The notes beneath the pieces are model-generated. The model was not told the origin of the DNA. It ran no database searches and worked only from the letters and a program-made list of their open reading frames with translations. Below are positions 6,070 through 57,787 of a DNA stretch of 64,000 nucleotides, one piece after another. Numbering within the stretch: position 1 is the stretch's first letter; every line of letters starts with the position of its first letter. The stretch is from Bdellovibrionales bacterium (GTDB lineage: Bacteria; Bdellovibrionota; Bdellovibrionia; Bdellovibrionales; JAGQZY01), in NCBI GenBank assembly GCA_964230645.1, contig CAXRHT010000002.1:224001-288000 (forward strand). The letters run 5' to 3'. The position numbers were made by a program, and so were the translations under genes.

Positions 6070-6098
6070 TTGACTTACTTACATATAACTTACATATT
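6070..6098 (+). promoter_or_regulatory. Sigma70-like promoter (TTGACT-N17-CATATT) overlapped by direct-repeat operator ACTTACATATAACTTACA (6077-6094)
   Basis: Direct repeat ACTTACATAT at 6077 and 6088; same motif at 31110-31127 and 57760-57777. Confidence 0.75.
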
Positions 6099-6124: not shown

Positions 6125-6766
6125 TTGATGAATCCAGCCGCTTTGTTTTTAAAAGAAGAGGACAGAAGAAAGCTTTGTCTGCTTGAGGATAAAAAAGAAC
6201 TCAATGCAAAAGAGCTTGAGAGCCCGCAAACCCCTTTGGCTTCTTTGAATGCTTTCCTAAAAGCACAGAGCTTTAAACACCAGCTCAGTGAGTGGGGTAC
6301 ACCCCATGGGAGTTTTTCAAAGCTCTTACCAAGCCTAATCGCTGCAAGCTTACAAAAAGAAGTTCTATGGCTGAGTGACCAGCAGGACTCGCTTATCTAC
6401 CCGCAAGCCTGGCGGGAGTTGCACTTTGATTTGAATCAAATTTATTTTTTAAGAGAAAAACGTGTTTTACGCAGTCTTCGCACCTTAATTCGTGAAGAGA
6501 GCTTTTCTTTTATTATGATCGACTCTCATCACTTCTTTTCAAAATCGGACCTTCACTTTTTGTCGCAATCTGCCCGCTCACAAAGAATGACTCTTTTTCT
6601 TTTTCGTCCTTATTTTCTAAGTGCCAAAAAAGGCAATCCCTTTTGTCGATTGCGTCTGAATAGCTCTTATGAGCTATCCAGCCAAAAGTTTCATTTATCT
6701 TTTATTAAAGGCGGGGAGAGAAAACGACATTTTAAAGCAAGCTTTGGTGAGGTTTTTAGTGGCTAA
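6125..6766 (+). CDS. imuA: ImuA-like (RecA/SulA-fold) mutasome accessory protein
   Basis: First gene of the cassette ahead of dnaE2; LSEWG..P.G degenerate P-loop, VLWL, YPQAW and hhhhD motifs. Confidence 0.65.
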   Translation: MMNPAALFLKEEDRRKLCLLEDKKELNAKELESPQTPLASLNAFLKAQSFKHQLSEWGTPHGSFSKLLPSLIAASLQKEVLWLSDQQDSLIYPQAWRELHFDLNQIYFLREKRVLRSLRTLIREESFSFIMIDSHHFFSKSDLHFLSQSARSQRMTLFLFRPYFLSAKKGNPFCRLRLNSSYELSSQKFHLSFIKGGERKRHFKASFGEVFSG

Positions 6767-8228
6767 GCTTCTCTCCCTTTTTAATTACGAAAAATCAAAA
6801 GAGGTTTTTCTTCCTTATCTGATCTTCTCAAGCTCTCAAAAAAAGAACCTCGACTTTCTCTCACCAAGCCTTATGAGAATCAGTGAAGACCTTTTTGTGA
6901 TCGATCTACAAATCACCCAAAGCTATTGGGAGAAACGAGCCAAAAAAGAGAGCAAAGAGCCCCAAGAACTCATTGAAGAAGTGTTTCAGTCTTATTTGCC
7001 TGAAAGTCCAATTCAACTCTTTTGCGAGCATCCTTTTCAAGGTCTTGTTTTTTTTCTTTATCTTAAAGAGCAAAACTCCAAAGGTTTTTTTAGCACTCAC
7101 TCCCTTTTTGCCCGTAAAATTTATGACAATATGGGTTGGCACTCTTGGATCTGGGCGGCTCGCCTGATCAATGACTGTTTTGAAGACAATAACTCCCTTG
7201 TTAAAGATAGAAAAAACTTCTCGTCTCAACTAAGACGTTTTTTAAGCTTTATTGAACGCACCGACCTCACTGAATTTTCCGACCTTAAACAGGCTCACTT
7301 TCACGAGATCCAGCGCCGCTTCCAAGGTTTTCTTGGGAAACTTTGGCTATGGAGCTTCCCGCAAGCCGAAGAAAGCGAAGACCTCAGCCTTTTTTCCCAC
7401 TACGAAAAACTAAAAGGCTTTGCTTGGATTCCCTATGAAAACAGTCCTAAACCACAGACTAAGACCTGGCTTGAGTACCCCTTGTCTTACTGGGAGGAGA
7501 TTAAACCTCTTTTGCTTTGTGATTTTGAAAAGCTAAGTCAGAAAAAAGAGCTACAAAGTCCCTATAAGCTTTTAAACATTGAATGGAGCTTTACTCTTTA
7601 TGATCTCAGTCAGCTTAAACAAAGTATTCCTTTCAAACATCCTCTTTGCCTCAGTTTAGAAAGGAAAAAGGATTTTGCCACTCTTACAGGTCAGTTCTCC
7701 TTTGCCTTTGAACAATTCAAAGAAACACTCAAAGAGAAAAATCATGATCTTGACGTTATTAACACCCCTCTTATTCTGGGATGGACTCTTAAGGTTTCTC
7801 AAAGGGTGCAAATTCGCGAGAAAAATCAGAATTTTATCTTTGAAAGTAATAGTGAAGTCCAGAGTAGTGCTGAGGAGCTAAAAGAGCTTAATAACAAATT
7901 ACAAAAGCCCCTTGAGTCTTATGTCGCTTTAGAGCACTTTATCCCCGGTCTTGATTTTATCTCTCAAGACCTCCACGAGAATGACAATCCTCTTTTTAAT
8001 GAAAAGCTTTTAATGCCAAAGCCTTTTTACCTATTTCCAAAGGAAAGAAAACTTTCGGCCTCTGAAATTGTCAGTTCGCAATTTCTTGATCGCAGCAGTC
8101 AAGACTGGTGGAACAGGGAAGAGACTTTGGATTCTGTGCGCGACTGCTTCATTTGCCAATTAAAAAATAAAGAGCTTGTCTTTGCTTTTCGCAATTTTCA
8201 AGGAGAGTGGTTCCAGTATGGCTACTAG
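6759..8228 (+). CDS. imuB: Highly divergent ImuB-like (inactive Y-family polymerase) protein
   Basis: Position between imuA-like gene and dnaE2; EIQRRFQG; C-terminal DWW..RDxF..W tail typical of ImuB; start inferred at GTG 6759 (GGTGAGG RBS). Confidence 0.55.
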   Translation: MAKLLSLFNYEKSKEVFLPYLIFSSSQKKNLDFLSPSLMRISEDLFVIDLQITQSYWEKRAKKESKEPQELIEEVFQSYLPESPIQLFCEHPFQGLVFFLYLKEQNSKGFFSTHSLFARKIYDNMGWHSWIWAARLINDCFEDNNSLVKDRKNFSSQLRRFLSFIERTDLTEFSDLKQAHFHEIQRRFQGFLGKLWLWSFPQAEESEDLSLFSHYEKLKGFAWIPYENSPKPQTKTWLEYPLSYWEEIKPLLLCDFEKLSQKKELQSPYKLLNIEWSFTLYDLSQLKQSIPFKHPLCLSLERKKDFATLTGQFSFAFEQFKETLKEKNHDLDVINTPLILGWTLKVSQRVQIREKNQNFIFESNSEVQSSAEELKELNNKLQKPLESYVALEHFIPGLDFISQDLHENDNPLFNEKLLMPKPFYLFPKERKLSASEIVSSQFLDRSSQDWWNREETLDSVRDCFICQLKNKELVFAFRNFQGEWFQYGY

Positions 8229-11200
8229 CCAAGATTTTGAAATTCATGAGTGGCTCACTAAGAGCAACTTTAGCTTTCTTATGAGCTCAGCTCATCCTCA
8301 TCAACTTATTCAGATGGCTTTGGGCTGTGGCTATAGCTCTTTATGCCTTAATGACTTTGATGGCCTTTATGGTAGCGCTCGTCTTTATAACGAGAAAAAA
8401 AGTATCTTTGAAAAAACGGGAAAAAGTATCAAGCTGAATTATGGCGCAGAGATCCACCTTCTTAGTGATCACGACAGTCCCTTATTAAAGCAGAAAACTC
8501 TTGTGTTAAATGTCTTTAATAAAAAAGGCTACACTAATTTATGTAAGCTTTTAAGTCTTTCCCATAAAGACTCAAAAACCAAGGCCTTTATTTCCTTTGA
8601 AACACTTCTTACACAAGATCTCTCTGGTCTTTTTGCCATTGTACCCATGAGAGGAGGATTTGATTTTTTCTTAAACAACGAAGAAAAGCTTAAAAAATTA
8701 AAAGAAAAGATGACGGGTGAAGTCTATTTGGCTTTAACTAAAAGTTTTCATCACTCCAGTGATCATCTTATTAAAAAGACTCTTGAGCTTTCTCAAAAAG
8801 TCGAAATTTCGCCTCTCTTTTCCCAAGATATTTTTATGAACCATCGCTCAGAAAAAGCTTTCCACGACCTACTTACAGCCATTCGAGTGAATCAAAGAGT
8901 GGATGAGTGTTTAGAACATCACCTCCCTAATGGAGAACGTTCCTTTCACTCCGCCCAACACTTTTATGAAATCTATCGACACTTCCCAAACTTCAAGAAA
9001 GTTTTCTTTCAGATGAAAGAGCTCAATGAAAAAGCTCAGTTCTGTCTTTCTTCTTTGCGCTACCATTATCCAAAAGAGTTTATCCCTGAGGGTCATTCGG
9101 CTCAGTCCTTTTTAGAGCTTAAGGCTTGGGAGGGAGCGCGTAAGCGCTACGGTGAGCATATCCCTACACCTGTTGTCACCACCATCAGTCGGGAGCTTGA
9201 TTTGATCGAAGATCTCGACTTTGCCGACTACTTTTTAACCGTTTGGGATATCGTGGCCTGGGCGAGAAGCCAAGACATTCTCTGCCAAGGAAGAGGCTCG
9301 GCCGCTAATTCATCTGTTTGTTATGCTCTCGGGATCACCTCTTGTGACCCCAGTCTCTTTGATCTTTTGTTTGAGCGCTTTGTAAGTAAGGAAAGAGGAG
9401 ATCCTCCGGATATTGATGTCGACTTTGAGCATGAGAGAAGAGAAGAGGTCATTCAGTACATTTACCGACGCTACGGCCGCAAGAAAGCCGCTATGGTGGC
9501 TAACGTTATTAGCTTTAAAAGTAAGGGCGCTTTACGAGCCGTGGGTAAGGCTTTAGGCGCCCCTGAGCCTTTATTAAAAAAGGCCTCTGATCTGTGCCGA
9601 ACGGTGGCCTTTAGAAAAGAAAGTCTTAACACTGTTATTAGTGAGGTGAAAAAGGGGAGTGAAGTCTCTCAAGCTTTTCCTTCTTTTTGGAAGTTTTGGT
9701 CCGAGTTCTCCGAAAAAATTCATGGCTTCCCTAGGCACTTGGGGCTACACTCAGGCGGCTTTATAATCTCTCAAAACCCGATTGATGAATTGGTACCAAG
9801 GGAGCCTGCCACCATGGAGGGCAGAACCGTTATTCAGTGGTGCAAAGATGATATTGAAGAACTGGGCTTTTTTAAAATTGATTGCTTAGCTCTTGGAATG
9901 CTTACAGCTTTGAGAAAAGCTTTTAAGTTGGTAAAAGATCACTATCAAGTCGACCTTGATCTTTACAACTTACCGCAAGAAGACAAGGCCACCTACCAGA
10001 TGATTCAAAAAGCCGACACCGTCGGTGTTTTTCAGATTGAATCACGGGCCCAAATGTCCATGCTTCCAAGGTTAAAGCCAAAAACTTTTTACGATTTGGT
10101 GATTGAAATCGCTATTATTCGGCCCGGTCCCATCCAAGGAAATGTCATTCATCCTTATTTAAAAAGAAGGGATGGCCTGGAGCCGATCACCTATCCTGAT
10201 GAAAGAATCAAAGATGTGCTGGCAAAAACTCTTGGGGTGATTCTTTTCCAAGAACAACTGATGAGAATAGCGATTGCATTGGGTGATTTTACCGCAGGCG
10301 AAGCCAATGAGCTGAGAAAACATATTGGTTCATGGAACTCCAAGGCTTTTAATAGAAACCTTAACCCCTATATTAATAAACTCTTTAGCGGCTTAAAAAA
10401 GAGAAACATCAATCCTAGTTTTATTAAACAGATGGTAGAGCAAATGAAAGGCTTTGCCGAATATGGTTTCCCTGAGTCCCATGCCATTTCTTTTGCTTTT
10501 ATTGCCTATGCCTCTTGTTATTTAAAGTGTCACTATCCTGCGGCCTTTTTCACTTCCGTGCTTAACTCCCAGCCCATGGGCTTTTACTCACCCCACGCTC
10601 TCTTGCAAGCGGCTAAGAGAAAAAACATTTCTATCTTACCTATTTGTGTGAATCATTCCACTTGGGATCACCAGCTTGAAGCCCTTCCCGGTAAAGAGGG
10701 GAGGCCCACCCAGTACGGTATTCGTTTAGGCTTTAGTTTGGTCTCAGGGCTTTCTAAAAAAGCTGTGGAAGCTCTTGTTAGAGTCAGAGAGGCTGAGGGT
10801 CCCTGGAAGGAGTTAAATGATTTTATCCATAGCACTCCCATTTACCGAGACGATTATTCAAGCCTTGCCGCGGCTAATGCTTTTGCTTGCTTTGGCTTAA
10901 GCCGCTTTGATGCTCTCTGGAAAGTGGAAGCCGTTCCCTATAAAGAGCTAGTGGATGTCGAGGAGCGTAAACTACAGTGGAAAAGTAAAAATAGCTTTGA
11001 AAAAGCCCAACTTGATTTCCGTGCCACGGGCACAAGTCTTGAAACTCATCCTGTACAGGTGATTCGCAAGTCTTATTGGTCTTATGAGATTGCGAGTCGT
11101 CATATTTCATTATCCTCAGAGCTTGAAAAAATGCGTACCAATGCTCATGTCCATGCCTTCGGCATGACACTCATAAAGCAAGCTCCTCCCTCGGCTAAGG

Positions 11201-11472
11201 GAATGGTTTTTATCACTCTTGAAGATGAAAAAGGTTTTATCAATCTAGCTTTTGATCCCAAAACTTATCGAAAGTTCCACCAACTCATTGAAGGCCATGG
11301 TTTTCTTTGCATTAGTGGGAAGCTACAAAAAGCCTCCAACTACCATTCTATTCTCGTGGAAAGAGTGCATCCGGAAAGACGCACTGACATTAAAGAGCTT
11401 CCTTTAGAAAAGTCGAAAGAACATCAACAGCAAGGTCTTAAGTTAAAACTTAAGCCTCGTAACTATTTTTAG
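8218..11472 (+). CDS. dnaE2: Error-prone DNA polymerase III alpha (DnaE2/ImuC)
   Basis: SNFSFL..S.HP PHP start, CQGRGSAANS, PPDIDVDFEHERREEVIQY, FPRHLGLHSGG, YGFPESHA, NSQPMGFY and FITLEDE motifs; start ATG 8218 after AAGGAG. Confidence 0.95.
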   Translation: MATSQDFEIHEWLTKSNFSFLMSSAHPHQLIQMALGCGYSSLCLNDFDGLYGSARLYNEKKSIFEKTGKSIKLNYGAEIHLLSDHDSPLLKQKTLVLNVFNKKGYTNLCKLLSLSHKDSKTKAFISFETLLTQDLSGLFAIVPMRGGFDFFLNNEEKLKKLKEKMTGEVYLALTKSFHHSSDHLIKKTLELSQKVEISPLFSQDIFMNHRSEKAFHDLLTAIRVNQRVDECLEHHLPNGERSFHSAQHFYEIYRHFPNFKKVFFQMKELNEKAQFCLSSLRYHYPKEFIPEGHSAQSFLELKAWEGARKRYGEHIPTPVVTTISRELDLIEDLDFADYFLTVWDIVAWARSQDILCQGRGSAANSSVCYALGITSCDPSLFDLLFERFVSKERGDPPDIDVDFEHERREEVIQYIYRRYGRKKAAMVANVISFKSKGALRAVGKALGAPEPLLKKASDLCRTVAFRKESLNTVISEVKKGSEVSQAFPSFWKFWSEFSEKIHGFPRHLGLHSGGFIISQNPIDELVPREPATMEGRTVIQWCKDDIEELGFFKIDCLALGMLTALRKAFKLVKDHYQVDLDLYNLPQEDKATYQMIQKADTVGVFQIESRAQMSMLPRLKPKTFYDLVIEIAIIRPGPIQGNVIHPYLKRRDGLEPITYPDERIKDVLAKTLGVILFQEQLMRIAIALGDFTAGEANELRKHIGSWNSKAFNRNLNPYINKLFSGLKKRNINPSFIKQMVEQMKGFAEYGFPESHAISFAFIAYASCYLKCHYPAAFFTSVLNSQPMGFYSPHALLQAAKRKNISILPICVNHSTWDHQLEALPGKEGRPTQYGIRLGFSLVSGLSKKAVEALVRVREAEGPWKELNDFIHSTPIYRDDYSSLAAANAFACFGLSRFDALWKVEAVPYKELVDVEERKLQWKSKNSFEKAQLDFRATGTSLETHPVQVIRKSYWSYEIASRHISLSSELEKMRTNAHVHAFGMTLIKQAPPSAKGMVFITLEDEKGFINLAFDPKTYRKFHQLIEGHGFLCISGKLQKASNYHSILVERVHPERRTDIKELPLEKSKEHQQQGLKLKLKPRNYF

Positions 11473-27922: not shown

Positions 27923-30900
27923 ATGAAATTCCTGCTGGTCTGCTTTGTGTTTTTTCTCCCTTTTACTTTTGCTGAGGTAACTTTAGCAGGTTCAACAAAA
28001 CAAAAGCATTCACCTAGAAAAATAGAATGGGGCTACAAGAAACTACCTATTTTAAAAAGACAAAAGAGGGATTACTTACCAAGACGCGTTCGTGTGGGAC
28101 GGAAAACATTTTTAAAAGCCCGCATGCAAAAAGGTTCCGCCACCCATCCTTACTGGGGCATTGAACAGCTTTATACCGATGTTCGTTTAGAGAAAATTGT
28201 GGCGGTGAAAAAACGAGTGGTCGTTAGTGGTGAAAATGTTGTGGGTGGTTGGAGAAAGTTAAATAAAGGCTATGTGCTTCATCTAAAAAGAGGCCAACTT
28301 GTAACAGCCTATTTCACCCAAGGATTAGATCACAGAGAGCGTTATTACTTGGAAAGAAAACTGCGCCGCGCTCATAAAGTCGCCCATTGGACCGAGCTTT
28401 TTTTCAAATCCGCTTATGCCAGTGAAGTGACGGGTGGAGGAGGCACCGGTGCAACTGACCCAGCTCGCCCCAGAGAACTAACAGGAGATGATTTTGGCCC
28501 AAGACAGATCGCTGTGCACACGGCGAAGTGTGTGGGCTCCTCGGTCGCTGAAGGGGCTGTGGAGGCAGTGGGAAATTCTTGGGAAGGCTTAAAGAGTGCG
28601 GGATCTTCGGTGCGCGATGCAGGCTCAGCCCTTGTGAACGATTTTCGAGGTTCCATGCAAAATGTTGGAAATTGGTTATGGGACCGGGGTGAAGCCGTGG
28701 TCGATGCCGGAGGACAGGCCGTAAACTATGTCGGCGAGGCGATCATAGATCCCAGCATGGTTCGCGATGACATCATGAATGCGGTCAACCAAACAGTGGA
28801 GGTCGCCCAAAGACTTTATCAAGCTCTCGCCAACACCATAACTGGCTGGGATGAACTGCCCGGCCCCATCAAAGCGGAAATAATGTGTATGGGAATTCTC
28901 ATCGGAGGCCCCACTTTGGCTGCAGGTCTACTAGCTTGGACCGGTGTGGGATCGGCTATGTCGGCAAGGCTTGCCGCATGGGTGGCCGGTTTTGCAGGGA
29001 GAGTGGCGGGAGTCCTTCCACAACTGATGCAAATTTGGAACAGTGCTAGTGGAAGTGTTCAAGAAAAAATGACTCAAATTAGACAGACTTGGACAAACTT
29101 TATGGAGGATGAGTCTTCAGGCTCTCCCACTCCCGTCACAACAGCTGGAGCGGCTAGTGGTAATGGAGATTATGTGGGATTTCGAAATCGATATCCCGAT
29201 GGGAGTGCTCGTAACCAAGCCATGGCCGCTAACCGCGCTTTGAACGATAGCGAAAGAATCTCCGCCATTGAGGAACAACTCGGCGTCACTCTGACAGCCT
29301 CCCAACGACAAAGACTTCTTGAAATTCATAATGTGCAATGTGCTTCTCAGACCTGTACGGCTCAGGAGATCAGAGACTTAAAAGATCTCCGCGGTGTCAT
29401 GGCGATGTTCCCCGATGTTCCAAGGGAAAGAGTTCTTGATCTTTACCGCTCAAACCTACTGGGAGGAGAAGAAGTGGATATGTCGGAATTTGCCGATCTT
29501 CTCAATCAACCCGCTTTTCCAAGAGCCCCTAGACAGACTCCTGATGAAATCGCGGCGGCTCGGTTAAGCGGAATGCAAAGCGACTTAAACAGTATTGACG
29601 AGAGAATCGCCCAACTTCAAGCCAATCCCAATCACTCCTCTATCGAGATGGCGGACCTTAGACGTCGAAGGAACTTACTTCTCAGTGCCATCGCAAGAGA
29701 AGAGGTGGAACAAGCCGATGTTGACATGAGTGAGTTTGAAGCTCTCTTGCAACAACCCGTTAATCTTTCTCGTAGAGATGCTGATGCTCCGGAAGGGGAA
29801 GCTGTAGAAATTGATCCCGATTCACGCTTGGCTCGTGATGCCTATGGAGCGAATGCCGATGAAGACGATCAAATGGGTGACGTGATGGCAGCAGTGAATC
29901 AAGAGATCACAGACGCTGACCGCGAAGAATTTCAGGCTTTACTTAGAATGACAGGAATTGAAAGACCGATTCTGGAAAGAGCCCACGATAGATTTGAAAG
30001 AGCCACCGAGACGGCTCCTGAATCTGCTCGTTATGTTTCGCCTTCCACAGGTGAAATGACCGACGTTCGCGTGATTGGGGTAGGTGAGGGTGAAGGACTG
30101 GATCAATTGGTTCGAGTTCGAGTTCGCACAGAAGATGGTCGTGTGGTAACTAGAAATGTTCGCATGGGATCTCTTGTTCCCGACGGAGAGGCTGACACTC
30201 TACAAGCCATAAGTGGCCCCAATGGCACTCAAGGTATTGTCGATGAGATGGCAAGGAACGCAACCAGTGACCGTGAAAGAATTAGAGAATTGGACCGGGA
30301 AATAGAGCAAGCCTCAAGAGATCGGGACATGGCAGCCTCAATAAAACTGACCAATGAACGCGACGAACTAGCAAGAAGAGACACCCCATTAAGAAACAAT
30401 GAGGTCGATGCCATTCAAGCCGTATCAGAAGCCTTTACTGCGGAAGGTGTGGCCGAGCGTATTCCTCTTAATGTTTTACCCAATGGACAGATCCAAATAC
30501 GGCCGGGCTACAATGGGCGAGAGTTAAGTTTCACGCCAGAAGAGATGAGAGACTTTCAAAGAGTGCAGTCCTATGTGGATGCAAGAAGGGGAGCAGCAAG
30601 GGCCGAAGAAGACCAGGCTTTATTTCAAAGAGTGAGTGAACTCAACCCCAATGAACTTTTAAGGCAAAGAGCTTTGAACCGCCAACGACAACTCACCCGT
30701 GAGATGGCAAGCTTTACTAACAATCGATCAAGGCCTTATGAGATTCCTCGTTTTGCAGAGTACAGACAGTATGACCCTAGAAGCCTTTCACAGGCCTACG
30801 GATCTTCAAGCTCCATTCGCCAAGCTCTCGAAACGGTTGATACAATTATTCGCTCACCCAGTCCCACTTTAGGGACACAAGACATCACTCAACTTAATCG

Positions 30901-31033
30901 TGCATTGGGAACTTTAACGGATCGAAGATATCAAAATATTATCAACGAAAACCCAGCGCTCAGAGACTACCTTAACTTCGCCGCCAACCGAGCAGCGGAA
31001 TCCTCACTTCGTCATATGCGAGACGGACTTTAG
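27923..31033 (+). CDS. Large secreted hypothetical protein (1036 aa)
   Basis: Signal peptide, basic N-terminal domain, Gly/Ala-rich hydrophobic middle, helical acidic C-terminal half. Confidence 0.75.
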   Translation: MKFLLVCFVFFLPFTFAEVTLAGSTKQKHSPRKIEWGYKKLPILKRQKRDYLPRRVRVGRKTFLKARMQKGSATHPYWGIEQLYTDVRLEKIVAVKKRVVVSGENVVGGWRKLNKGYVLHLKRGQLVTAYFTQGLDHRERYYLERKLRRAHKVAHWTELFFKSAYASEVTGGGGTGATDPARPRELTGDDFGPRQIAVHTAKCVGSSVAEGAVEAVGNSWEGLKSAGSSVRDAGSALVNDFRGSMQNVGNWLWDRGEAVVDAGGQAVNYVGEAIIDPSMVRDDIMNAVNQTVEVAQRLYQALANTITGWDELPGPIKAEIMCMGILIGGPTLAAGLLAWTGVGSAMSARLAAWVAGFAGRVAGVLPQLMQIWNSASGSVQEKMTQIRQTWTNFMEDESSGSPTPVTTAGAASGNGDYVGFRNRYPDGSARNQAMAANRALNDSERISAIEEQLGVTLTASQRQRLLEIHNVQCASQTCTAQEIRDLKDLRGVMAMFPDVPRERVLDLYRSNLLGGEEVDMSEFADLLNQPAFPRAPRQTPDEIAAARLSGMQSDLNSIDERIAQLQANPNHSSIEMADLRRRRNLLLSAIAREEVEQADVDMSEFEALLQQPVNLSRRDADAPEGEAVEIDPDSRLARDAYGANADEDDQMGDVMAAVNQEITDADREEFQALLRMTGIERPILERAHDRFERATETAPESARYVSPSTGEMTDVRVIGVGEGEGLDQLVRVRVRTEDGRVVTRNVRMGSLVPDGEADTLQAISGPNGTQGIVDEMARNATSDRERIRELDREIEQASRDRDMAASIKLTNERDELARRDTPLRNNEVDAIQAVSEAFTAEGVAERIPLNVLPNGQIQIRPGYNGRELSFTPEEMRDFQRVQSYVDARRGAARAEEDQALFQRVSELNPNELLRQRALNRQRQLTREMASFTNNRSRPYEIPRFAEYRQYDPRSLSQAYGSSSSIRQALETVDTIIRSPSPTLGTQDITQLNRALGTLTDRRYQNIINENPALRDYLNFAANRAAESSLRHMRDGL

Positions 31034-31109: not shown

Positions 31110-31127
31110 TGTATGTTTTATGTAAGT
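31110..31127 (-). promoter_or_regulatory. Direct-repeat operator (reverse complement ACTTACATAAAACATACA) upstream of the radical SAM-UdgX operon
   Basis: TGTATGT-TTTA-TGTAAGT on + strand, between a TTGAAC -35 candidate (31085) and the GGAGG RBS (31143). Confidence 0.7.
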
Positions 31128-31154
31128 AATTTGCGCCTAACCGGAGGCCTCAAC

Positions 31155-32408
31155 ATGGATGTACAGAAAAAACTTGAAATACTGGCCGATGCGGCCAAAT
31201 ACGATGCTTCTTGCGCCAGCAGTGGATCTAAAAGAAAAGCTAAAAAAGGGTTCTTGGGAGACTCCAACTCTGTTGGAATTTGCCATAGCTACACACCCGA
31301 TGGACGATGCGTTTCTCTTTTAAAAGTTCTTTTTAGCAATCACTGTATTTATGATTGCAAATACTGTGTGAACCGAGTGACAAGCGATGTCCCACGCGCC
31401 AGTTTTACGGTGCAAGAAATCGTGGACCTTACCATCAACTTTTATAAAAGAAACTATATTGAAGGCCTCTTTTTAAGCTCTGGAATATTCAAGGACTCAG
31501 ACACCACAATGAACCAACTCACGGAGGTGGCTAGAAAGCTCCGTGTAGAGGAAAGGTTCAATGGCTACATTCATCTTAAAGCTGTGGCCGGAGCCAGTGA
31601 CGAAGTTCTGGCTGAGGCCAGTCTTTATGCCGATCGGCTCAGTGCCAATATCGAACTCTCTGAAGATCAGGAACTAAAAGAATTAGCCCCAGGAAAAACC
31701 CATGCCTCCGTTTTTCAAGCCATGGGAAAACTCAAAGAGGTAAAATCTGAGGGAGCCACCGAACAGAAGAGCCGACTTCCCTCTGCTTTAAAAAATCGCC
31801 TCACGCCAGCCGGACAAAGCACACAAATGATCGTGGGAGCCACGGGGAGCGCAGACCGAAGTCTACTTAAAAGGTCCAGTGAGCTCTATTCACGCTTTGA
31901 ACTCAAAAGAGTCTATTACTCCTCCTACAGTCCAATTCAAAAAAGCTCTCCTCTTCTTCCCTCCAAACAACCGGAACTCGTTAGAGAGCATCGACTCTAT
32001 CAAGCCGACTGGCTTATGCGTTTTTATGGGTTTTCTACGGATGAAATTGTACCAGAAAGTCATCCCCATTTGAGTCTTGAGCAAGACCCTAAACTCAGTT
32101 GGGCTTTAAGAAATCGTCACCTTTTCCCAGTGGACGTCAATAAAGCGGATAAAGAGTCCCTTTTAAGAGTCCCTGGTCTTGGCGTGCGGAATGTTCAGCG
32201 CATCCTTTCAGCCAGACGTTTTAAAAGATTGCGTTACCAAGATTTAGTGAAGATGAATCTACAAATGGCGCGAGCGAAGTACTTTCTATTGACCTCAGAC
32301 TTTAACCCCTTTGCCATGCGCCTTGATGACCAATCTCTTCAGTTCAGGCAAGAAGAGCAGCTTTCCTTTTTCTCAGAACAATTCTCTGGTCTCACAGGCG
32401 AGGTCTAG
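31155..32408 (+). CDS. Putative DNA modification/repair radical SAM protein (TIGR03916-type)
   Basis: ADAAKYDASCASSG, GICHSYTPDGRC, CIYDCKYC, REHRLYQADWL and HhH LLRVPGLG motifs; start ATG 31155 after GGAGG. Confidence 0.93.
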   Translation: MDVQKKLEILADAAKYDASCASSGSKRKAKKGFLGDSNSVGICHSYTPDGRCVSLLKVLFSNHCIYDCKYCVNRVTSDVPRASFTVQEIVDLTINFYKRNYIEGLFLSSGIFKDSDTTMNQLTEVARKLRVEERFNGYIHLKAVAGASDEVLAEASLYADRLSANIELSEDQELKELAPGKTHASVFQAMGKLKEVKSEGATEQKSRLPSALKNRLTPAGQSTQMIVGATGSADRSLLKRSSELYSRFELKRVYYSSYSPIQKSSPLLPSKQPELVREHRLYQADWLMRFYGFSTDEIVPESHPHLSLEQDPKLSWALRNRHLFPVDVNKADKESLLRVPGLGVRNVQRILSARRFKRLRYQDLVKMNLQMARAKYFLLTSDFNPFAMRLDDQSLQFRQEEQLSFFSEQFSGLTGEV

Positions 32409-32410
32409 AG

Positions 32411-33793
32411 ATGCTTTATCCCACCTATGAGCAGTGGCTAAAATCCCAGATTGAAAACCAACCTGAGATTGAACTCTCAAACCAGCTCCCCCAACAAATA
32501 AGTTTTCTTGATGGACTATCTCCTCGAGAGTCCAATAAGAAACCATTTACCATTGAAAAATATAAGAATGATAAGCGCTTACAAAAAGTTGTTGAACCTG
32601 TTTTTATACATTCTGACCCTGAACGTTTTAAAATCCTGCAGAGTTTTTTTAAAGACTATCAGCAAGACCCTAAACAAATGTTCAACCCTCTCAACCCTCA
32701 TGTGAAAAAAATTGAGCGCTTCACCAAACAGGTGGGTCGTGACATCCATAAAATGCGAGCCTTTGTGCGCTTTAAAGAACAGATAAGAGAGGGCATTAAA
32801 CTTTATGTTGCCTATTATGAACCCGACCATTTTATTTTAAAGAAGAACACGGAATTCTTTGTGCGGCGATTCAATTCCATGAATTGGCTTATTATCACTC
32901 CCCACGCTTGGGCTCTATGGAACCAGAAACAACTCTTGTATGAAGAGGAGAGGTTAAAAAAACCGAATCTTGATGAAGATGGCTTTGAAGAACTATGGAA
33001 GACCTATTACTCAAAAATTTTCAATCCCGCCCGGGTAAAGATTAAGGCCATGAAAAATGAGATGCCAACACGCTTCTGGAAGAACCTTCCTGAAGCGGAA
33101 TGCATCGCGCCTCTTATTCAATCAGCCCCTACGAGGGTGTCCAATATGGTCACCACCCAAAAGTCTCATTTTCGAAAACCTTCTTTTAGCACATTGAGAG
33201 AACTCAATTCGAGTATAAAAAACTGCCAGGCCTGTAATCTCTGCCAACTTCCTACTCAAGCCGTGGTAGGGGAGGGCCCCAAGCAAGCTCGGCTGATGAT
33301 TGTGGGAGAAGCCCCTGGAGATGAAGAGGAAAAAAGGGGACGACCTTTTGTTGGACCTGCCGGCAAGGTTTTAAGGAAAGTTTTAAAAGATTTGGGCGAA
33401 GACGTGGGGAATATTTATTTAACCAATGCTGTAAAACATTTTAACTACAGGAAGTCTGGAAAACTTAGAATTCACAAAAACCCGGAGGCTCAACATATCA
33501 TGCACTGTCATGGCATACTACAAACGGAGATCAAACTACAAAAACCTCAATTGATTTTAGGCCTGGGGCGCTCGGCGGCTCACTCGCTTTTTGGTTTCTC
33601 AGTTTCTCTTTCAAACTACCGAGGGATACTCACAAAAACAGTGGACGACACCCCTTGTGTGATCAGTCACCATCCGGCCAGGCTTTTAAGGGAAAAAGAC
33701 CCGGCAAGACGTGAGCAATTAACCAAAGAGTTTCGCCAAGACATTCAACTAGCCTTGCGGACTCTTGAGCGGACAAAAGAATTAGTCGTCTAA
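32411..33793 (+). CDS. udgX: DUF4130 (TIGR03915) domain fused to UdgX-family uracil-DNA binding protein
   Basis: DIHKMRAFVRF and LWKTYY..IFNPARVK..AM..EMP..FWKNLPEA; then CQACNLC, VGEAPG, PFVGPAG, TNAVKHF, KLRIH and HP motifs. Confidence 0.88.
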   Translation: MLYPTYEQWLKSQIENQPEIELSNQLPQQISFLDGLSPRESNKKPFTIEKYKNDKRLQKVVEPVFIHSDPERFKILQSFFKDYQQDPKQMFNPLNPHVKKIERFTKQVGRDIHKMRAFVRFKEQIREGIKLYVAYYEPDHFILKKNTEFFVRRFNSMNWLIITPHAWALWNQKQLLYEEERLKKPNLDEDGFEELWKTYYSKIFNPARVKIKAMKNEMPTRFWKNLPEAECIAPLIQSAPTRVSNMVTTQKSHFRKPSFSTLRELNSSIKNCQACNLCQLPTQAVVGEGPKQARLMIVGEAPGDEEEKRGRPFVGPAGKVLRKVLKDLGEDVGNIYLTNAVKHFNYRKSGKLRIHKNPEAQHIMHCHGILQTEIKLQKPQLILGLGRSAAHSLFGFSVSLSNYRGILTKTVDDTPCVISHHPARLLREKDPARREQLTKEFRQDIQLALRTLERTKELVV

Positions 33794-46253: not shown

Positions 46254-49200
46254 TTAATTACTACAACACCACACCGGTAAAGAGTTACAAGGTAAAAGAC
46301 CATCATTAGTGGTACCCGTTTCATACACATTGTATCCCGAGTTTTTATAACCACCGATATCAGCCACCCATCCACGGTGTTGATTGGATGTATAATCGAC
46401 AAAATTCCCCATGCAGTTTATGGCATCATCGCCAGCATCTGGACGAGAGGTGTTACAAGAACCCGTTCCTCGTTCAGCCGCAGTACACACCCAGGTTCCT
46501 TGTGGGCAAGCCGCTTGAGCGCCGTACCAGGCCGCAGTAGTATAGCTTAAACCAAAATTAACACTGCCATTACTACAAAGCCCTGCTTCCACTCCTGATG
46601 TTCCATATCTTTGGGTTCCAGGTCTCCCCTCTCCCCAGAGTCGATTGTCGCCGGCACTATCCACTGAGCGTACCTCACCAACAACTTCAAGCTTTGCTTC
46701 GGGATCGGCAGTACCTATACCTACATCTCCGACTCTTGTAATCGTCATTTGTTCATCATAGTAGTCGCTACCAAAAGGATTAACCATTCCCTGTCCTAGT
46801 ACAATTCGATCGGCCCCTCCGTTATCAGAAACAATTCCTAAAAATCCGGTAGAGATTTCTTGATAAACGTTGGTGGCTTCAAATTTTAAAAAGGAAGCCG
46901 TATTATCAGCCTCCTCAGTGTTGGTAATTTTTAAAGAAGGACCACCTGGTGCAGATAAGGAACTTGAAGAGGACGAATAGGAGGTCGAATCTTGCTCAGA
47001 AGCCTGCATAAGCGCTGTCGGTGCTGTTGTTCCAATACCAACATTGCCCGTATTATCAATTCTAACTTTCTCACTCCCATTGGTGGAAAAACCAATGTTG
47101 TCAGCCGCTGGATTGAACAATCCCGTATTAGAGTCCGCAGAAAAGCTCATGGCCGGGGTTGAAGCTCCAGAATTACTTAGAAGTAACTCCGCACCAGCGT
47201 TTAGGGCGAAGTTTTGGTACGAAGTCGTTACAGAAGCCCCTCCGTCGATATTTAAAAAAGAGTTGAATCCCGAACAATCCGAATTCGCACAGTAACCAAA
47301 TGAAAAAAGTTCCAAACCACTGCTGGTTCTCATTGCGTAAGCATTAGAGAGATCATTGGGAGTCGTGTCATGGGCGATTATACCACTCGTGTCGGTGAGA
47401 ACCATTCTTCCTTCATTAGTAATAAATAGCGCATCTATTTCACTACCATCAGCGGAATCTAAAGAGTGACCGTCGCCACCCGAGGCTCCCCCACCAGCTT
47501 CCACCCATGCACTGCCATCATAAAATTTTAACTTATTAGAATCACCACTATCGACGGCAATGTCACCGGCTACAGGCGAGCCTGGTAGAGTCGAAGCCGT
47601 TAAGCGCATTGGCCCATTTATGTGTAACTTTCGTGCTGGAGCACTTGTGCCAATTCCAAGATTACCTGTGGGATCAATTCTTAAGGTCTCCGTCCCCCCA
47701 TTGGTAAAACCAATTGAGTTGGCTGCGGGTCGGAAAACTCCAGTGTCATCGTCATCTCGAAAAGAGTAGCTCGGATTTGTAACTCCCCCTCCCCAAAGAT
47801 TGATAAAAAACGAGCCACTTTGCCAACCGTAGAGACTTCCAGAATCGATCGTCATACGCTCGTTCCCACCGAGACTAAATGCCATGGCATCACCATAAGG
47901 ACTAAAAATTCCAGTATTGGTATCCCCATCAAAGGAAAACCCCGGAGTTGAACTGGCTCCCACATTGGCTAAAATCGTATCTCCGTCTGTGTAGCCAGCA
48001 CCTCCTGCGGCACCTGTGTCCACCCAACTAGATCCGTCAAAAAATTTTAATTTATTAGAGTCTCCGCTATCGATAGCTATATCACCAGCCGCAGGAGCCC
48101 CTGGAAGAGCCCCTGGATTCAAGCGAGCAGGGCCATCAACATGTAGCTTACGTGCTGGAGTCGTTGTCCCTATCCCTATATTTCCAGTTGAGTCGATGAC
48201 CAGTCGATCTTCTCCAGCAGTAGTAAAGCTCATTAGGTCAGCCCCGAGTCTATAAATTCCGGTGTCCACATCGGATGAAAATGAGAAGGAAGGTGTGGTT
48301 TTACTGGGAACTGAAGTAGACAAAAACCAAGATCCCACAGTGGGAGATTGAATGGCCTCTGGACTTACTATCATTCGCTGTTGTCCACCGGCATATAATC
48401 TAAACTGATTGGCCGAACCACTTCTAAAAATTCCTGTGTCCTCATCACCCGCAAAGTTGAGAGCATAGGATGAGCCCCTTAGGGTTAAAGCTCCGGTCAT
48501 ATCAACCGATCCATCAGCGAGGAAATCTCCACTTCCTCCTACAGGATCGACCCATGATAACGCTCCTGAACCGTCTGTTTGTAAAACTTGATTCGCATCC
48601 CCGTCATCTACTGGAAGTGTTAGAGTGTAGTTATTGGCTAAAGAAGCCGGCGCAATTATTTCTACATCGTTTAGTCCATTATCAGAGTCTTCTGACAGCC
48701 GAATGGCTCCAGCCGTTGAGGCGTTACCTCTAACTCTTAAAGTGCGATTAACGGACGAACTCGTTGAACCAAACGTAGCGAAAATCCCCCCTACATCACC
48801 CATTTCAATCTCTTGATTGGTCGGCTCCGTGGTTCCAGTCCCTGCAATCACTAAACTTGATGAAGAGGTTCCAGGTAAGAGACCGCCTGGGGAGTCTTCT
48901 ACTTGGATGATCCAACCGTCAGTGGTGTTATCAAGTTTGATTCCTGGATTTTCATCAGATTGAAGTTGTAAAACGGCGTGATTGCCGGCACCCGTAGCGT
49001 TCACTGTGAGGAGTTCTGAAGGGGCCGTTGATCCAATACCCACTCTTCCATTGGCATCAAGCCGAAGGCGTTCAGTTCCACCTAAAGAAAAACCGATTTG
49101 ATTCGAAGCTGGACGAAAAATTCCGGTATCAGAATCAGCCCAGAAAGAAAAGGCTGGGGTACTGGCATCAAGACCATCTCGAGTCATGAATCCGGTTCCG

Positions 49201-52200
49201 GCAAAAGTACCTGCCACAAATCCTGAAGGCGCAAACTGAAAACGTAAACTTCCTCCCAAGGAAAGGCCTAATTCATTCGCTCCGATACGATAAAATCCAG
49301 AGTCTTGATCTGCTGCAAAAGAAATGCTAGGTGCTGAGGCATTTCCAGAGGCGGCATCAAATTGCCCAGTCATTGCCACAGAACCATCGGCCAAAAAATC
49401 TCCTGAGCTGCCACCAATTCCACTAGATAAATCTAGACAATTAGTATTGTTCTCATCGCAAATTTCGGCTGCATTAATACTTCCAGTATGAACGTCTAAG
49501 GCAACAGCGGGAGCAGTGGTGCCAATACCGACATTTCCTGTTCCTGTTACGATCGCAGGACCTGAATTTGAAGTGAAATATCCAGCCACGCTGGTATCAC
49601 TTTGAGCACGGATAGCATAACTATCTAAAGAAAGGGCATCCACTCCGTACCCAGTATCCGATTCACCATAAACTCCCGTCGACGCACTCGAATATCCATA
49701 AACACCGATCACAGGTGAAGAGCCGTGAATCGCAATCCCATTTGTGGAGGACGCGTTTAGACCATAGTCAAAACCGGTGGAAGAAATATTAAGCTCTTCA
49801 CTGGCTGAATCCCATGACAAACCTGAAGTTGCGGCAAATGAGCCTGCATTATTGAACTGTAATTGTCCTGTACTACCAGCCGGAGTTCCTCCTCCTGCCG
49901 ATCCACCGGCTTCCACCCAACTAGAGCCGTCGTAAAATTTTAATTTGTTAGAGTCAGCGCTATCAAAATACAAATCCCCTGCGCTAGGAGAGCTTGGGAC
50001 TGCCTGTGGTGTCAGCCTCATGGCTCCATTAACATGCAACAGTCGCTCTGGTGCCGTTGTTCCAATTCCCACATTCTGTGTGGTGCTTTGAATCCTCATT
50101 GATTCATTGCCATCGTTGCTGAAAGTGATATCTTCACCAGCGAATGCACCAATATCAAATATCCCTGTGGCTTCGTTGAGAGTCAATACACCAGCACCGG
50201 CTCCATCTTGCAACATCAGTGTTGCAAAACCACCGGAATTATCAACCGTAACCACTGTTGAATCATTTGATTCTAGTCTTAATATATTGTTATTGGAACC
50301 AAGAGTTACGATACCGTCGTTTCCACCATTATTAATGTCCCCACCACCACCACTGATACCAGAGGAAAGATCTAAACAATTCGCATTATTTTCATCACAA
50401 ATTTCAGCTGCGTTAATGCTCCCTGTATTTACATCAAGTGCTACAACAGGAGATGAGGTCCCTACACCAACAAATCCGCCCGAATTCAAACGAAGCCTCT
50501 CAGAGCCATCAATTTGAAAGATAATATCGCTACCAGGGTTTGTATTATTGTCATCAGCCTGTAGTATAATTGATCCAGAGTTATCGGAAACGATCAATCC
50601 ATAGGCCCCAGTGTCTGAATCTTGAAGTCTAATTCCTGGAACCGCGCTATTTATATGCAAATTGTGAAGAGGATTAGTGGTTCCGATTCCAATAAGTCCT
50701 CCACTATTAATTGTCATTCTCGTCGTGTCGTTAGTCTCAAACCTTAAATCAAAGGCGTCGTTGGTACCAGTGGTTAGGTTCGCCCCCAGAGTATTTCCTC
50801 CATTAACTAAATAACCATCATCAGCAATAATCGCCTCTACTTCGGCACTTGATAGGACGAAATTACTTCGAGTCATTTTTCTCAAACCACCAGCAGAAAC
50901 ATCATGAATTAAAATTTCATCACCACTGGCTACAATGGCTTCACTTGTTTCATTGGTAATATCAACATTGACACCACTTCCATCCACTGAGATTCCTGAA
51001 CCTCCAGCGACTTCGATATCGTCGGCATTAACATTGATTCCATTACCCGCTCCGATAGCAAGAGTTAGATTGGTGGAAAGGTTGCCACCACCTGTTAGTC
51101 CCGCGCCAGAAATGATTTGTGTCGAGGTAGCTACTTTGTCACTATTAAGTTCAGCGATTGCTGCCTGTAAAGTCGTTGCCGTTAAGGGTGTAGTTCCAAC
51201 AGGAATGGCAGTGGGATCAAACTGGGCTTCATCCACTGTTAAAGTGACGACATCAGCAACTGTCGAAACTCCAATTTTAGTATTCGCAGACGCTAAACTT
51301 CTAAACTCAAAGTCCACTCCACTTTTTTGTTTGAAAATAGGTGAGCCCGCACCAACAGTAGAAGCCGTGTTAGCCTCTCCACCCGAAGCTGTGCCAAAAG
51401 CCTCCCAATTACTGCCATCACAAAAAGAAACAGATCCACCGACATATTTTAATGTTCCGGCTTTGGTGCCATCACAAGCATCAAGGTCGTCACCAATTTG
51501 TACGCCACCTGAAACCTGCAGTAACGAAGAAGGCTGAATTGTTCCAATACCAACGTTGCCATCAGAAGTGATCCTCATTCTCTCGTCGTAACCTCCGGAG
51601 CCGTTGTTTAGGAAGAGCAGGTCACCGTAACCATTTGTGGAGTCTGTTATTTTTGTTCCAATTACTCCGATTGAATCAGAAACAGAGTTACCCATCGATA
51701 CGGAAACCATCCGTCCAATGGCTCCTCCCTCTGCCGCATCATTCTGAATAAGAAGTCCGGCGTGGTTACCAAGTGTATTTGCATTGTTTCGTCCACGAAT
51801 GACGGCTCCCCAGTTCTTAGTTGTGTTAAAAGCTTTTAAGGGTACGGAGTCATCTGTTGTCTGAATGTCGAGACGATTTGAAGGGCTTGTTGTTCCGATA
51901 CCTACATTTCCTGCATAGTCGATTCGCATGGCCTCAGCCATGGGGTTAGTCCCAGTTGTTGAGGGATGAGTAAAGAATGCAATTCCTAACCTGTCAGAAC
52001 CTGACCCCTCCTGGACTGAAGAGATTGCAGCTCTTCTTTCAGTACTATCACTTTTACTCCAGGCAATCGCTGATCCATGTGAGGAAGCGCCTATCCCTCT
52101 ATTGTCCAAAAGAAAACCTGTTCCAGTCTGACTGGCCCCAGCAGAGGCGTCAAAACTTTCTCCAGCAGTCAAATGAAAAGGTGCCAACGGTGTTGATGTT

Positions 52201-54974: not shown

Positions 54975-55571
54975 ATGTTCCCCTCTCTCATCGCTCTTAT
55001 GACTCTCTTTTTCAGTGCTACTTGTTTTGGAGCCCCCGTATGCTCCGATATTTTTAAACCAGCCCCACAAGAATTCTACGAGGCCGCTGTTTTTCCTGGC
55101 GACCCGGAATGGATGGTCTCACTTTTTGATCGCCGTATTCATGAGCAAGAATTTAAAATCTTCCCTCGTGACGAGGGTGTTATTCGTTGGCTACAAAAAA
55201 TAGCCCGCTTAAATCAGGAATACCCTATCGCTTCTCTGAGTCGCAATCGAGGTCTTATTGAGATCTCAAAGGATGTGTGGGAGCGTTTTATAAAAGAAGA
55301 TTTTAATGAAATTTTAATTCTACTCGAAGGTGTCGAGTTAGAGCGCAGTAACCGTTCCCCCAATAGGGATGTTGTATCTCAAACAAAAATTCCTTTCCTT
55401 TTTGAGGCCAATGAGGACACCACCGCCGGGGTTTATACATTGGAGCTTGAGCGTTCTGTGATCGAGTTTATGTTAAAGATGGAAGAACCCGCCTACTATT
55501 CACAGGCCATAGAAAATGGCTGGTACCGGGTGAGCCGCCGCTACACTCCTCCCCCAAGAAATCCTTACTAA
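54975..55571 (+). CDS. Secreted hypothetical protein
   Basis: Signal peptide followed by CSDIF; 198-aa ORF. Confidence 0.6.
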   Translation: MFPSLIALMTLFFSATCFGAPVCSDIFKPAPQEFYEAAVFPGDPEWMVSLFDRRIHEQEFKIFPRDEGVIRWLQKIARLNQEYPIASLSRNRGLIEISKDVWERFIKEDFNEILILLEGVELERSNRSPNRDVVSQTKIPFLFEANEDTTAGVYTLELERSVIEFMLKMEEPAYYSQAIENGWYRVSRRYTPPPRNPY

Positions 55572-57757: not shown

Positions 57758-57787
57758 AGTGTAAGTTATCTGTAAGTCTTAAGTCAA
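57758..57787 (-). promoter_or_regulatory. Sigma70-like promoter (TTGACT-N18-TACACT) overlapped by operator ACTTACAGATAACTTACA (57777-57760)
   Basis: TGTAAGT-TATC-TGTAAGT on + strand; the -10 element ends 9 nt before ATG 57748. Confidence 0.75.

Follow-up and report, generated by a model that had tools for sequence, protein, structure and literature searches.

The window (the whole stretch of 64,000 nucleotides that was analysed) comes from a genome placed by its sequence in the Bdellovibrionales, outside the Bdellovibrio family: its same-order relatives include members of the family of Bdellovibrio sp. HCB288, and the closest named LexA proteins are labelled Bdellovibrionales. Three 18-mers are present in the window, at 6077-6094 on the plus strand and at 31127-31110 and 57777-57760 on the minus strand, in agreement with the initial annotation, which had proposed them as a direct-repeat SOS box bound by LexA. 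As claimed there, 15 of the 18 positions are invariant and the half-sites recur with a period of 11 bp. The pattern ACTTACANANAACWTACA, used to search for the 18-mer, matched the window three times at up to two mismatches, each time exactly (expected 0.12; three matches reached in 0 of 100 shuffles). In the whole genome (3,777,340 bases) the same three were the only exact matches; no match had one mismatch and six had two, of which two overlap each other directly upstream of lexA.

Site 1, a candidate operator on the plus strand with ACTTACA half-sites at 6077-6083 and 6088-6094 (period 11), precedes a mutagenesis cassette. A putative -35 of the imuA promoter, TTGACT, lies at 6070-6075 (plus strand), and a putative -10, CATATT, was placed by eye at 6093-6098, 17 bp from the -35 and overlapping the second half-site. 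The first gene of the cassette is imuA-like (6128-6766, plus strand; start TTG 6125 or ATG 6128), and is followed by a probable imuB (6669-8228, plus strand) and by dnaE2, encoding an error-prone DNA polymerase (8176-11472, plus strand). The naming of these genes as imuA-imuB-dnaE2 stands in full for dnaE2, which scores 1092 bits against NF004225 (cut-off 939) and has Pol III alpha domains, whereas imuA has a weak match below the cut-off (NF033429, E = 3e-4) and imuB is named by position only, with no Pfam or NCBIfam match to its open reading frame at E ≤ 0.001.

Site 2, also a candidate operator (31110-31127, minus strand; 25.4 bits), is opposed to the direction of its gene and lies 28-45 bases before position 31155, where the gene probably starts with ATG. 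The gene encodes a UDG-linked radical SAM repair protein (31155-32408, plus strand; TIGR03916, 575 bits, above cut-off), preceded by GGAGG at 31143-31147. It is followed by a gene for a TIGR03915 domain fused to a UdgX-family uracil-DNA binding protein (32411-33793, plus strand; TIGR03914 and TIGR03915 above cut-off, DUF4130 and UDG domains). Just upstream of site 2 there is an open reading frame of 1036 amino acids without a Pfam match (27923-31033).

Site 3 (57760-57777, minus strand; 24.2 bits), the third candidate operator, precedes a gene on the minus strand for a FAN1-HTH / VRR-NUC / DEDDh exonuclease (55568-57748; PF21315, PF08774, PF00929; ATG at 57748), and its first half-site reads TACAG. 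A putative -35, TTGACT, is found at 57782-57787 (minus strand), and a putative -10, TACACT, was placed by eye at 57758-57763 (minus strand), 18 bp from the -35 and overlapping the second half-site. With the -10 at 57763-57758 and the ATG at 57748, the nuclease transcript is likely to be almost leaderless. The minus strand also carries an open reading frame of 2739 amino acids at 46254-54473.

At two loci the motif had been described as lying between TTGACT and the -10, in a repressor position. TTGACT is indeed present at both, but each putative -10 shares bases with the second half-site instead of following it. A core promoter under the motif is a reading by eye, from putative -35 and -10 elements, at sites 1 and 3 and at lexA; a sigma-70 scan found no promoter at site 2. 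Most orthologous promoters of imuA and lexA have TTGAC on the 5' side of the repeat.

lexA and the predicted regulon

The only lexA of the genome lies on contig C3 (441412-442068, minus strand; TIGR00498 above cut-off). Inspection upstream of lexA had been suggested as a check, and three overlapping units with a period of 11 were found before this sole copy, at C3:442090-442118, a span that ends 22 bases and begins 50 bases before the likely start; a further unit, the fourth, is degenerate and covers part of the -35. The LexA protein keeps Ala103-Gly104, Ser138 and Lys175 and is the single S24 peptidase of the genome. With these residues present, the presumed cognate repressor is predicted to be of the self-cleaving type. 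One copy of recA is present.

A matrix was built from 27 strict-pattern sites of same-genus relatives, with no contribution from this genome, and the whole genome was scanned with it, the recN, ssb and ruvABC promoters included. Site 1, before imuA, had the best score genome-wide (31.9 bits), and the other leading matches were those at lexA (26.3 and 23.1 bits), the radical SAM gene (25.4 bits) and the nuclease gene (24.2 bits). These top five matches all fall within four repair or lexA promoters; the next (18.8 bits) is AT-rich and lies at the start of an unrelated gene, and the remainder all score below 13 bits. The motif is thus rare before non-repair genes in the scan, as had been expected of a LexA box. 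No site was found by the same scan at recA, cinA, dinB or the two uvrA-like genes (C2:1909611-1912463 and C3:126388-128952, neither with a repeat), and the enrichment anticipated before recA, uvrA and dinB did not appear in this genome. The regulon predicted here from sequence comprises four promoters, those of the imuA cassette, radical SAM-udgX, the VRR-NUC nuclease and lexA. A wider regulon than that of Bdellovibrio bacteriovorus had been proposed; the four promoters lack recA, uvrA and dinB, and the number of strict sites equals that in genomes with B. bacteriovorus LexA.

Orthologous promoters and distribution of the repeat

The orthologous promoters, which had been named as a further check, retain the site to different degrees. 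Of 12 relatives in the same genus, 10 gave a lexA, and the repeat is present in all 11 promoters when the window's genome is counted. imuA was found in 8 of 60 relatives and its strict site is kept in 8/8 promoters. A search of 64 relatives gave ten with the radical SAM gene and a reverse-oriented site in three of the ten promoters, these three being from genomes whose LexA matches the type of this genome; of the other seven, four face a second lexA, a contig end truncates another, and the last two are without the site. For the nuclease, the closest of three homologues found has the site and the two distant ones lack it. At recA the site occurs in 1 of 30 upstream regions scanned (62 recA genes were found), and three further cases were met elsewhere.

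Three of the four radical SAM loci facing a second lexA were inspected and have a repeat of another kind. In these genomes (G019, G016 and G024; loci L222, L223 and L225, at ~1400-1500) the second lexA is divergent from the radical SAM-udg genes, and the region between them holds its own TATACA-like array with steps of 12 and 11 bases. By sequence, the second lexA and radical SAM-udg form a separate LexA cassette with another box.

Twenty further strict matches were fetched from relatives, some gene labels among them resting on likeness to the scanned proteins. Eleven stand before recognisable repair genes (umuD(C), dinB-type polymerases, radical SAM, the nuclease, a TIGR04122 exonuclease or recA), two before probable ones (imuA/imuB-like genes without HMM matches) and seven before unrelated genes. 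In Bacteriovoracaceae genome G064, TTACGC-N5-TTACGC precedes lexA, recA, uvrA and umuDC, in four of five sites fetched out of 21 loose matches; the match count of a loose period-11 pattern across genomes was not above control. The same-genus genome G012 (2 contigs, 100% complete) keeps recA, but lexA was not found in it, and the imuA, radical SAM and nuclease queries were all without a match. Its one strict match (control 1) lies away from repair genes, and the whole SOS module has apparently been lost.

Two side observations were made on these promoters. Strict sites occur near DEAD-box RNA helicase genes in two distant genomes (L151 in G064 and L178 in G034), which could be chance; the LexA regulon given for Balneolota likewise lists a helicase (PMC7739468). 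Many repeat promoters end within a few bases of a start codon that has no Shine-Dalgarno sequence, or overlap it (57748 in the window; L055, L117, L146 and L183), suggesting leaderless transcripts.

For a wider comparison, 140 lexA loci were collected; removal of 12 duplicates and of one without upstream DNA left 127, which were grouped by hand from titles, kinship codes and identity. A promoter was scored as having the repeat if an identical TAC-containing 5-mer recurred at period 11. In a sample biased towards this clade, since it was collected by LexA similarity, 75 of the 81 Bdellovibrionota promoters had a repeat at period 11 and 10 had one at period 12, the next best. The repeat is present in 11/11 promoters of the genus, 13/13 of other clade-A Bdellovibrionales, 33/38 of the Bdellovibrio family, 9/9 of other Bdellovibrionota LexA types and 9/10 of the Bacteriovoracia. 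Arrays comprise three to six units, with six in L014.

Outside the phylum, the count was 4/24 for Acidobacteriota-type promoters, 0/9 for the Desulfobacterota/Eisenbacteria type (4/9 if any 5-mer is allowed, as TTCAC variants) and 0/11 for the Patescibacteria type (10/11 if any 5-mer is allowed, as GTTC). Period-11 repeats of TTACGC/TTTCGC, TTTCAC or TTCAC lie over the lexA -35 in L074, L078, L080, L083 and L084 (Acidobacteriota) and in L063, L103, L107, L095 and L112; records with such repeats are from Thermoanaerobaculia, Desulfobacterota-type, Eisenbacteria, Sumerlaeota and CSSED10-310. Patescibacteria-type promoters (L081, L082, L088, L089, L092, L098 and L104) have GTTC-N7-GTTC, often followed by GAAC-N7-GAAC. 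One match, L215, was unrelated and was set aside.

In an even draw of 301 genomes of the phylum, 90 had an exact match to a 20-letter pattern of the -35 plus the repeat, in 14 of 35 families, while the control gave 3 matches; the adjoining genes were checked for a minority of these matches. The pattern undercounts, as it gives 0/8 in the family of this genome itself. Several families were without any match to it (0/28, 0/14, 0/10 and 0/10), so that a phylum-wide occurrence of the repeat cannot be claimed.

The letters of the repeat were compared with the recognition helix of the adjacent LexA in those lexA promoters, 92 of 128, in which the repeat could be scored. All 116 half-sites paired with Asn at helix position 3 read TACA/TTCA, and all 40 paired with Gly read TACG/TTCG. 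For Asp at position 7 the letters are TACGG in 12 of 14, and this pairing is seen in two separate clades. Other residues at position 3 have mixed letters (Ala: 13 G, 2 A, 1 T; Ser: 8 G, 2 T; Phe: 2 A). On the tree, the match between helix and base amounts to four state changes and two independent pairs on well-supported branches (p = 0.5), too few pairs for significance in a test whose rows had been coded from already fitting cases. E. coli LexA has 45 residues between the helix and the Ala-Gly cleavage site, the LexAs of this genus have 62 and those of four alphaproteobacteria 75-94; the median for the Bacteriovoracia is 47.5 (11 rows were skipped by the pattern). A long linker as a prerequisite for direct-repeat binding was ruled out by the Bacteriovoracia, which have the repeat despite their short median distance.

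The Bdellovibrio palindrome and the probable operator of LexA

In B. bacteriovorus, only lexA and the imuA cassette are reportedly regulated. The palindrome TTAC-N3-GTAA is cited as the LexA box of this species (Campoy et al. 2005, via PMC8565304 and PMC3323433). We found TTAC-N3-GTA(A/G) in 31 of 38 Bdellovibrio-family lexA promoters and in 1 of 43 others. Its surroundings follow the layout TTGAC-TTACAY-N5-TTACAC-T-GTAA, in which the first half-site overlaps TTGAC in 36 of 38 promoters. A further inverted half-site lies beyond the palindrome arm in 35 of the 36 promoters that could be anchored, at a distance of 11 (25 promoters) or 12 bases (10), and the family's lexA promoter consists of two half-sites forward and then two backward.

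Three genomes (G133, G121 and G145) have a LexA identical to that of B. bacteriovorus (UniProt Q6MHM9) and four strict repeat sites each (controls 1, 2 and 1). In these, lexA and imuA have the four-unit layout, while dinB and the gene for mobile mystery protein A (TIGR02612) have the repeat alone. Genomes G102 and G141 have 5 and 7 strict sites (controls 3 and 3), dinB included, and Bdellovibrio sp. HCB288 has sites at lexA, imuA and dinB. The dinB site is a repeat alone in 5/5 Bdellovibrio genomes, reverse-oriented and without a -35. Before the gene for mobile mystery protein A, a repeat-only site lies ~180 bases upstream in four of five Bdellovibrio genomes (L193, L189, L201 and L200; G133, G121, G145 and G102), from which it is a predicted SOS gene. 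In G141, lexA (L206) appears to be split into overlapping frames at 1538-1855 and 1704-2261, through a frameshift or a sequence error, and four extra strict sites (L197, L202, L204 and L205) lie within 10 kb before small open reading frames, one of them for a Phd-type antitoxin.

The simplest reading of these layouts is that the Bdellovibrio palindrome is the junction of two direct-repeat operators placed back to back, one on each strand. If TTAC is the counterpart of ATAC in E. coli and of GTTC in Bacillus, the polarity of the published palindrome would be opposite to that of canonical LexA boxes.

The initial annotation took the direct repeat as a lineage-specific switch from a palindrome. 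This is not supported, given the presence of the repeat in the lexA and imuA promoters of Bdellovibrio itself and across two classes. The history appears to be reversed, since the repeat is common to the Bdellovibrionales and Bacteriovoracia and the palindrome is nearly confined to the Bdellovibrio family; the direct-repeat geometry is likely to be old in this LexA lineage, as far as promoter sequences tell. In quick trees the Bdellovibrio family falls inside clade A (support 92), and a placement outside the other clade-A LexAs was not rejected (p-AU 0.25). Because the tree leaves this alternative standing, the direction of the history rests on parsimony, with repeat-only promoters in all surrounding groups.

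The 18-mer is best explained as the operator of the genome's single LexA, consisting of two WTACAY half-sites arranged head-to-tail one helical turn apart, a reading to which, taken whole, we assign a probability of roughly 85%. A shared direct-repeat operator at repressor positions, as first proposed, is most probably that of LexA, given its presence before lexA, its retention at imuA in all eight orthologues and its rarity elsewhere. In the standard SOS model, LexA blocks initiation until RecA-triggered self-cleavage frees the promoter (PMC9578287). In this genome, LexA bound over the -35/-10 spacer and the -10 would block RNA polymerase in either orientation of the site, and DNA damage would lead through RecA filaments and LexA self-cleavage to the opening of the four promoters. 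A period of 11 puts both half-sites on one face of the DNA in the same direction, so that either one DNA-binding domain would be turned on its linker, away from the usual two-fold arrangement, or repressors would be stacked head-to-tail. The arrays (three units at lexA here, up to six in L014) suggest a fit with cooperative head-to-tail stacking. We know of no structure that explains how a two-fold symmetric LexA dimer binds direct repeats.

That LexA binds these promoters in another geometry, through the TTAC-N3-GTAA palindrome or through cooperative single half-sites, with a real second and symmetric mode in the Bdellovibrio family, is improbable. It has in its favour that the palindrome is cited as the B. 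bacteriovorus motif from a binding study (PMC8565304, PMC3323433), and that the N3 junction, kept both at imuA and in those 31 of 38 lexA promoters of the family, is nearly fixed, a spacing that independent operators would not need. Against this, TTAC-N3-GTAA is absent from the four promoters of the window's genome and from 11/11 lexA promoters of its genus, in which GTAW-N4-WTAC, of canonical polarity, also occurs in 0/11; the Bdellovibrio dinB promoters have the repeat alone; and the inverted arms seen in other Bdellovibrionales are spaced differently (N7 in L039 and L041, a pair further off in L019). The palindrome arm can also be read as a TAnnnT -10 hexamer, 18 bp away from the -35, a role that may explain the nearly fixed 3-base junction. 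Genome-wide counts of the short palindrome against control (15 vs 20, 28 vs 29, 20 vs 23, 40 vs 70 and 53 vs 48) exceed it only barely, in one of five genomes, and decide nothing.

Direct repeats with a period of 11 are typical of OmpR/PhoB-family response regulators. Control of lexA and the repair genes by such a regulator, or another that binds 11-bp direct repeats, is very unlikely, although the period is reported for PhoP (PMC2275107) and the sites occur in either orientation. The letters of the repeat shift with the helix of the adjacent LexA, even for divergent LexA types inside one family, the repeat is lost together with lexA in G012 and occurs at only four promoters of this genome, and Balneola LexA binds a period-11 YACAY repeat (PMC7739468). 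That the repeat arises from promoter composition (a TTGACT -35 and an AT-rich spacer) or by chance, without operator function, has a negligible probability. In its favour, TTGAC often extends into the first half-site, A and T dominate the motif, and 7 of the 20 fetched matches lie away from repair genes, but this reading is largely refuted by the restriction to repair genes, and against it also stand the excess in the window over the 0.12 expected, the reverse-oriented sites without a -35 (site 2, Bdellovibrio dinB), the arrays of up to six units and the 90 of 301 genomes against 3 control matches.

Beyond the 18-mer itself, we lean slightly towards a broader account. B. bacteriovorus LexA would itself be a direct-repeat binder, its palindrome only the junction of opposed operators and its regulon under-counted by dinB and mobile mystery protein A. 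Head-to-tail binding would have been inherited in a large LexA lineage (Bdellovibrionales, Bacteriovoracia and parts of the Acidobacteriota, Desulfobacterota and Eisenbacteria), in which the half-site bases would be readable from the helix and LexA may stack on operator arrays as long as six units. If true, the limits of what has been cited as the shortest LexA palindrome since 2005 may have been wrongly drawn, and B. bacteriovorus would have overlooked SOS genes in dinB and the gene for mobile mystery protein A. The repeat provides a usable predicted SOS motif for much of a predatory phylum, and the lineage offers natural variants for the symmetry question, since its arrays range from two to six units, some operators form opposed pairs, linkers differ in length and the helix shows Asn/Gly/Asp swaps.

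Comparison with known LexA boxes

The alphaproteobacterial repeat, the Bdellovibrio palindrome and the general context are covered by PMC8565304, PMC3323433, PMC3901139, PMC9578287 and PMC1978210. A direct-repeat LexA box in Bdellovibrionota was not found in the full-text literature searched, which lacks most subscription work, Campoy 2005 included, where the repeats might be mentioned.

The closest known box is that of Balneolota, whose LexA direct repeat has been tested by gel shift and printed as the consensus TTACACATATTTTWTACATA (Kilic et al. 2020, PMC7739468). A +3 change of the spacer is among the mutations reported there to disrupt LexA binding, and the regulon given includes lexA, translesion polymerases, a radical SAM protein and recA. 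Like the box described here, it is a direct repeat of period 11, with a core YACAY-N6-YACAY in the sites listed; the targets in common are lexA, translesion polymerases and a radical SAM protein, and the LexA of Balneola vulgaris (WP_018127146.1, L214) has Asn at helix position 3 and sites reading YACA. The 5' flank differs (TTRY-ACAY against ACTT-ACAY here), the Balneolota regulon includes recA whereas that of this genome does not, and our matrix scores the two B. vulgaris lexA sites at 11.2 and 3.4 bits. Balneolota LexA is 30% identical to the LexA here and lies on a long branch, and a tree test neither establishes common descent nor rejects it (p-AU 0.48). The box is not, as first suggested, of a new kind, a period-11 LexA repeat with a YACAY core having already been gel-shift-tested in Balneolota (PMC7739468). 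The initial annotation was right on function and symmetry and overstated the novelty of the box type and the size of the regulon.

The alphaproteobacterial LexA box, GTTC-N7-GTTC (PMC9578287 Table 1; PMC8565304), is likewise a direct repeat of period 11, with three-unit arrays at lexA (L207, L216) and a long interdomain linker. It differs in its half-site (GTTC against TTAC), in its helix (SKSG[VI]HRL against SNNSVQNY) and in the separate branch of its LexA in quick trees. The Patescibacteria-type layout combines the alphaproteobacterial half-site with the forward-forward-backward-backward arrangement of Bdellovibrio, and may already have been published (2017).

The canonical palindromes, TACTG(TA)5CAGTA of E. 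coli and CGAAC-N4-GTTCG of Bacillus (PMC9578287), share with the box described here a LexA of the cleavable type and, at the putative promoters read by eye, a position over the core promoter, and are unlike it in their inverted symmetry and 4-base centre. The E. coli half-site can be read as ATACAG, resembling TTACAY here, and E. coli LexA has Asn at helix position 3; the half-sites are putative homologues.

B. bacteriovorus shares with this genome the half-site TTAC, the LexA clade (SH-aLRT 99-100), the targets lexA and imuA cassette, and a recA that is mostly without a site. Unlike the window's lineage it has the palindrome, and on either side of this each arm has a half-site of its own direction at a distance of one turn. 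Direct-repeat LexA boxes had been published before, one of them with the same period and core, and what is added here is the proposed re-reading of the B. bacteriovorus box.
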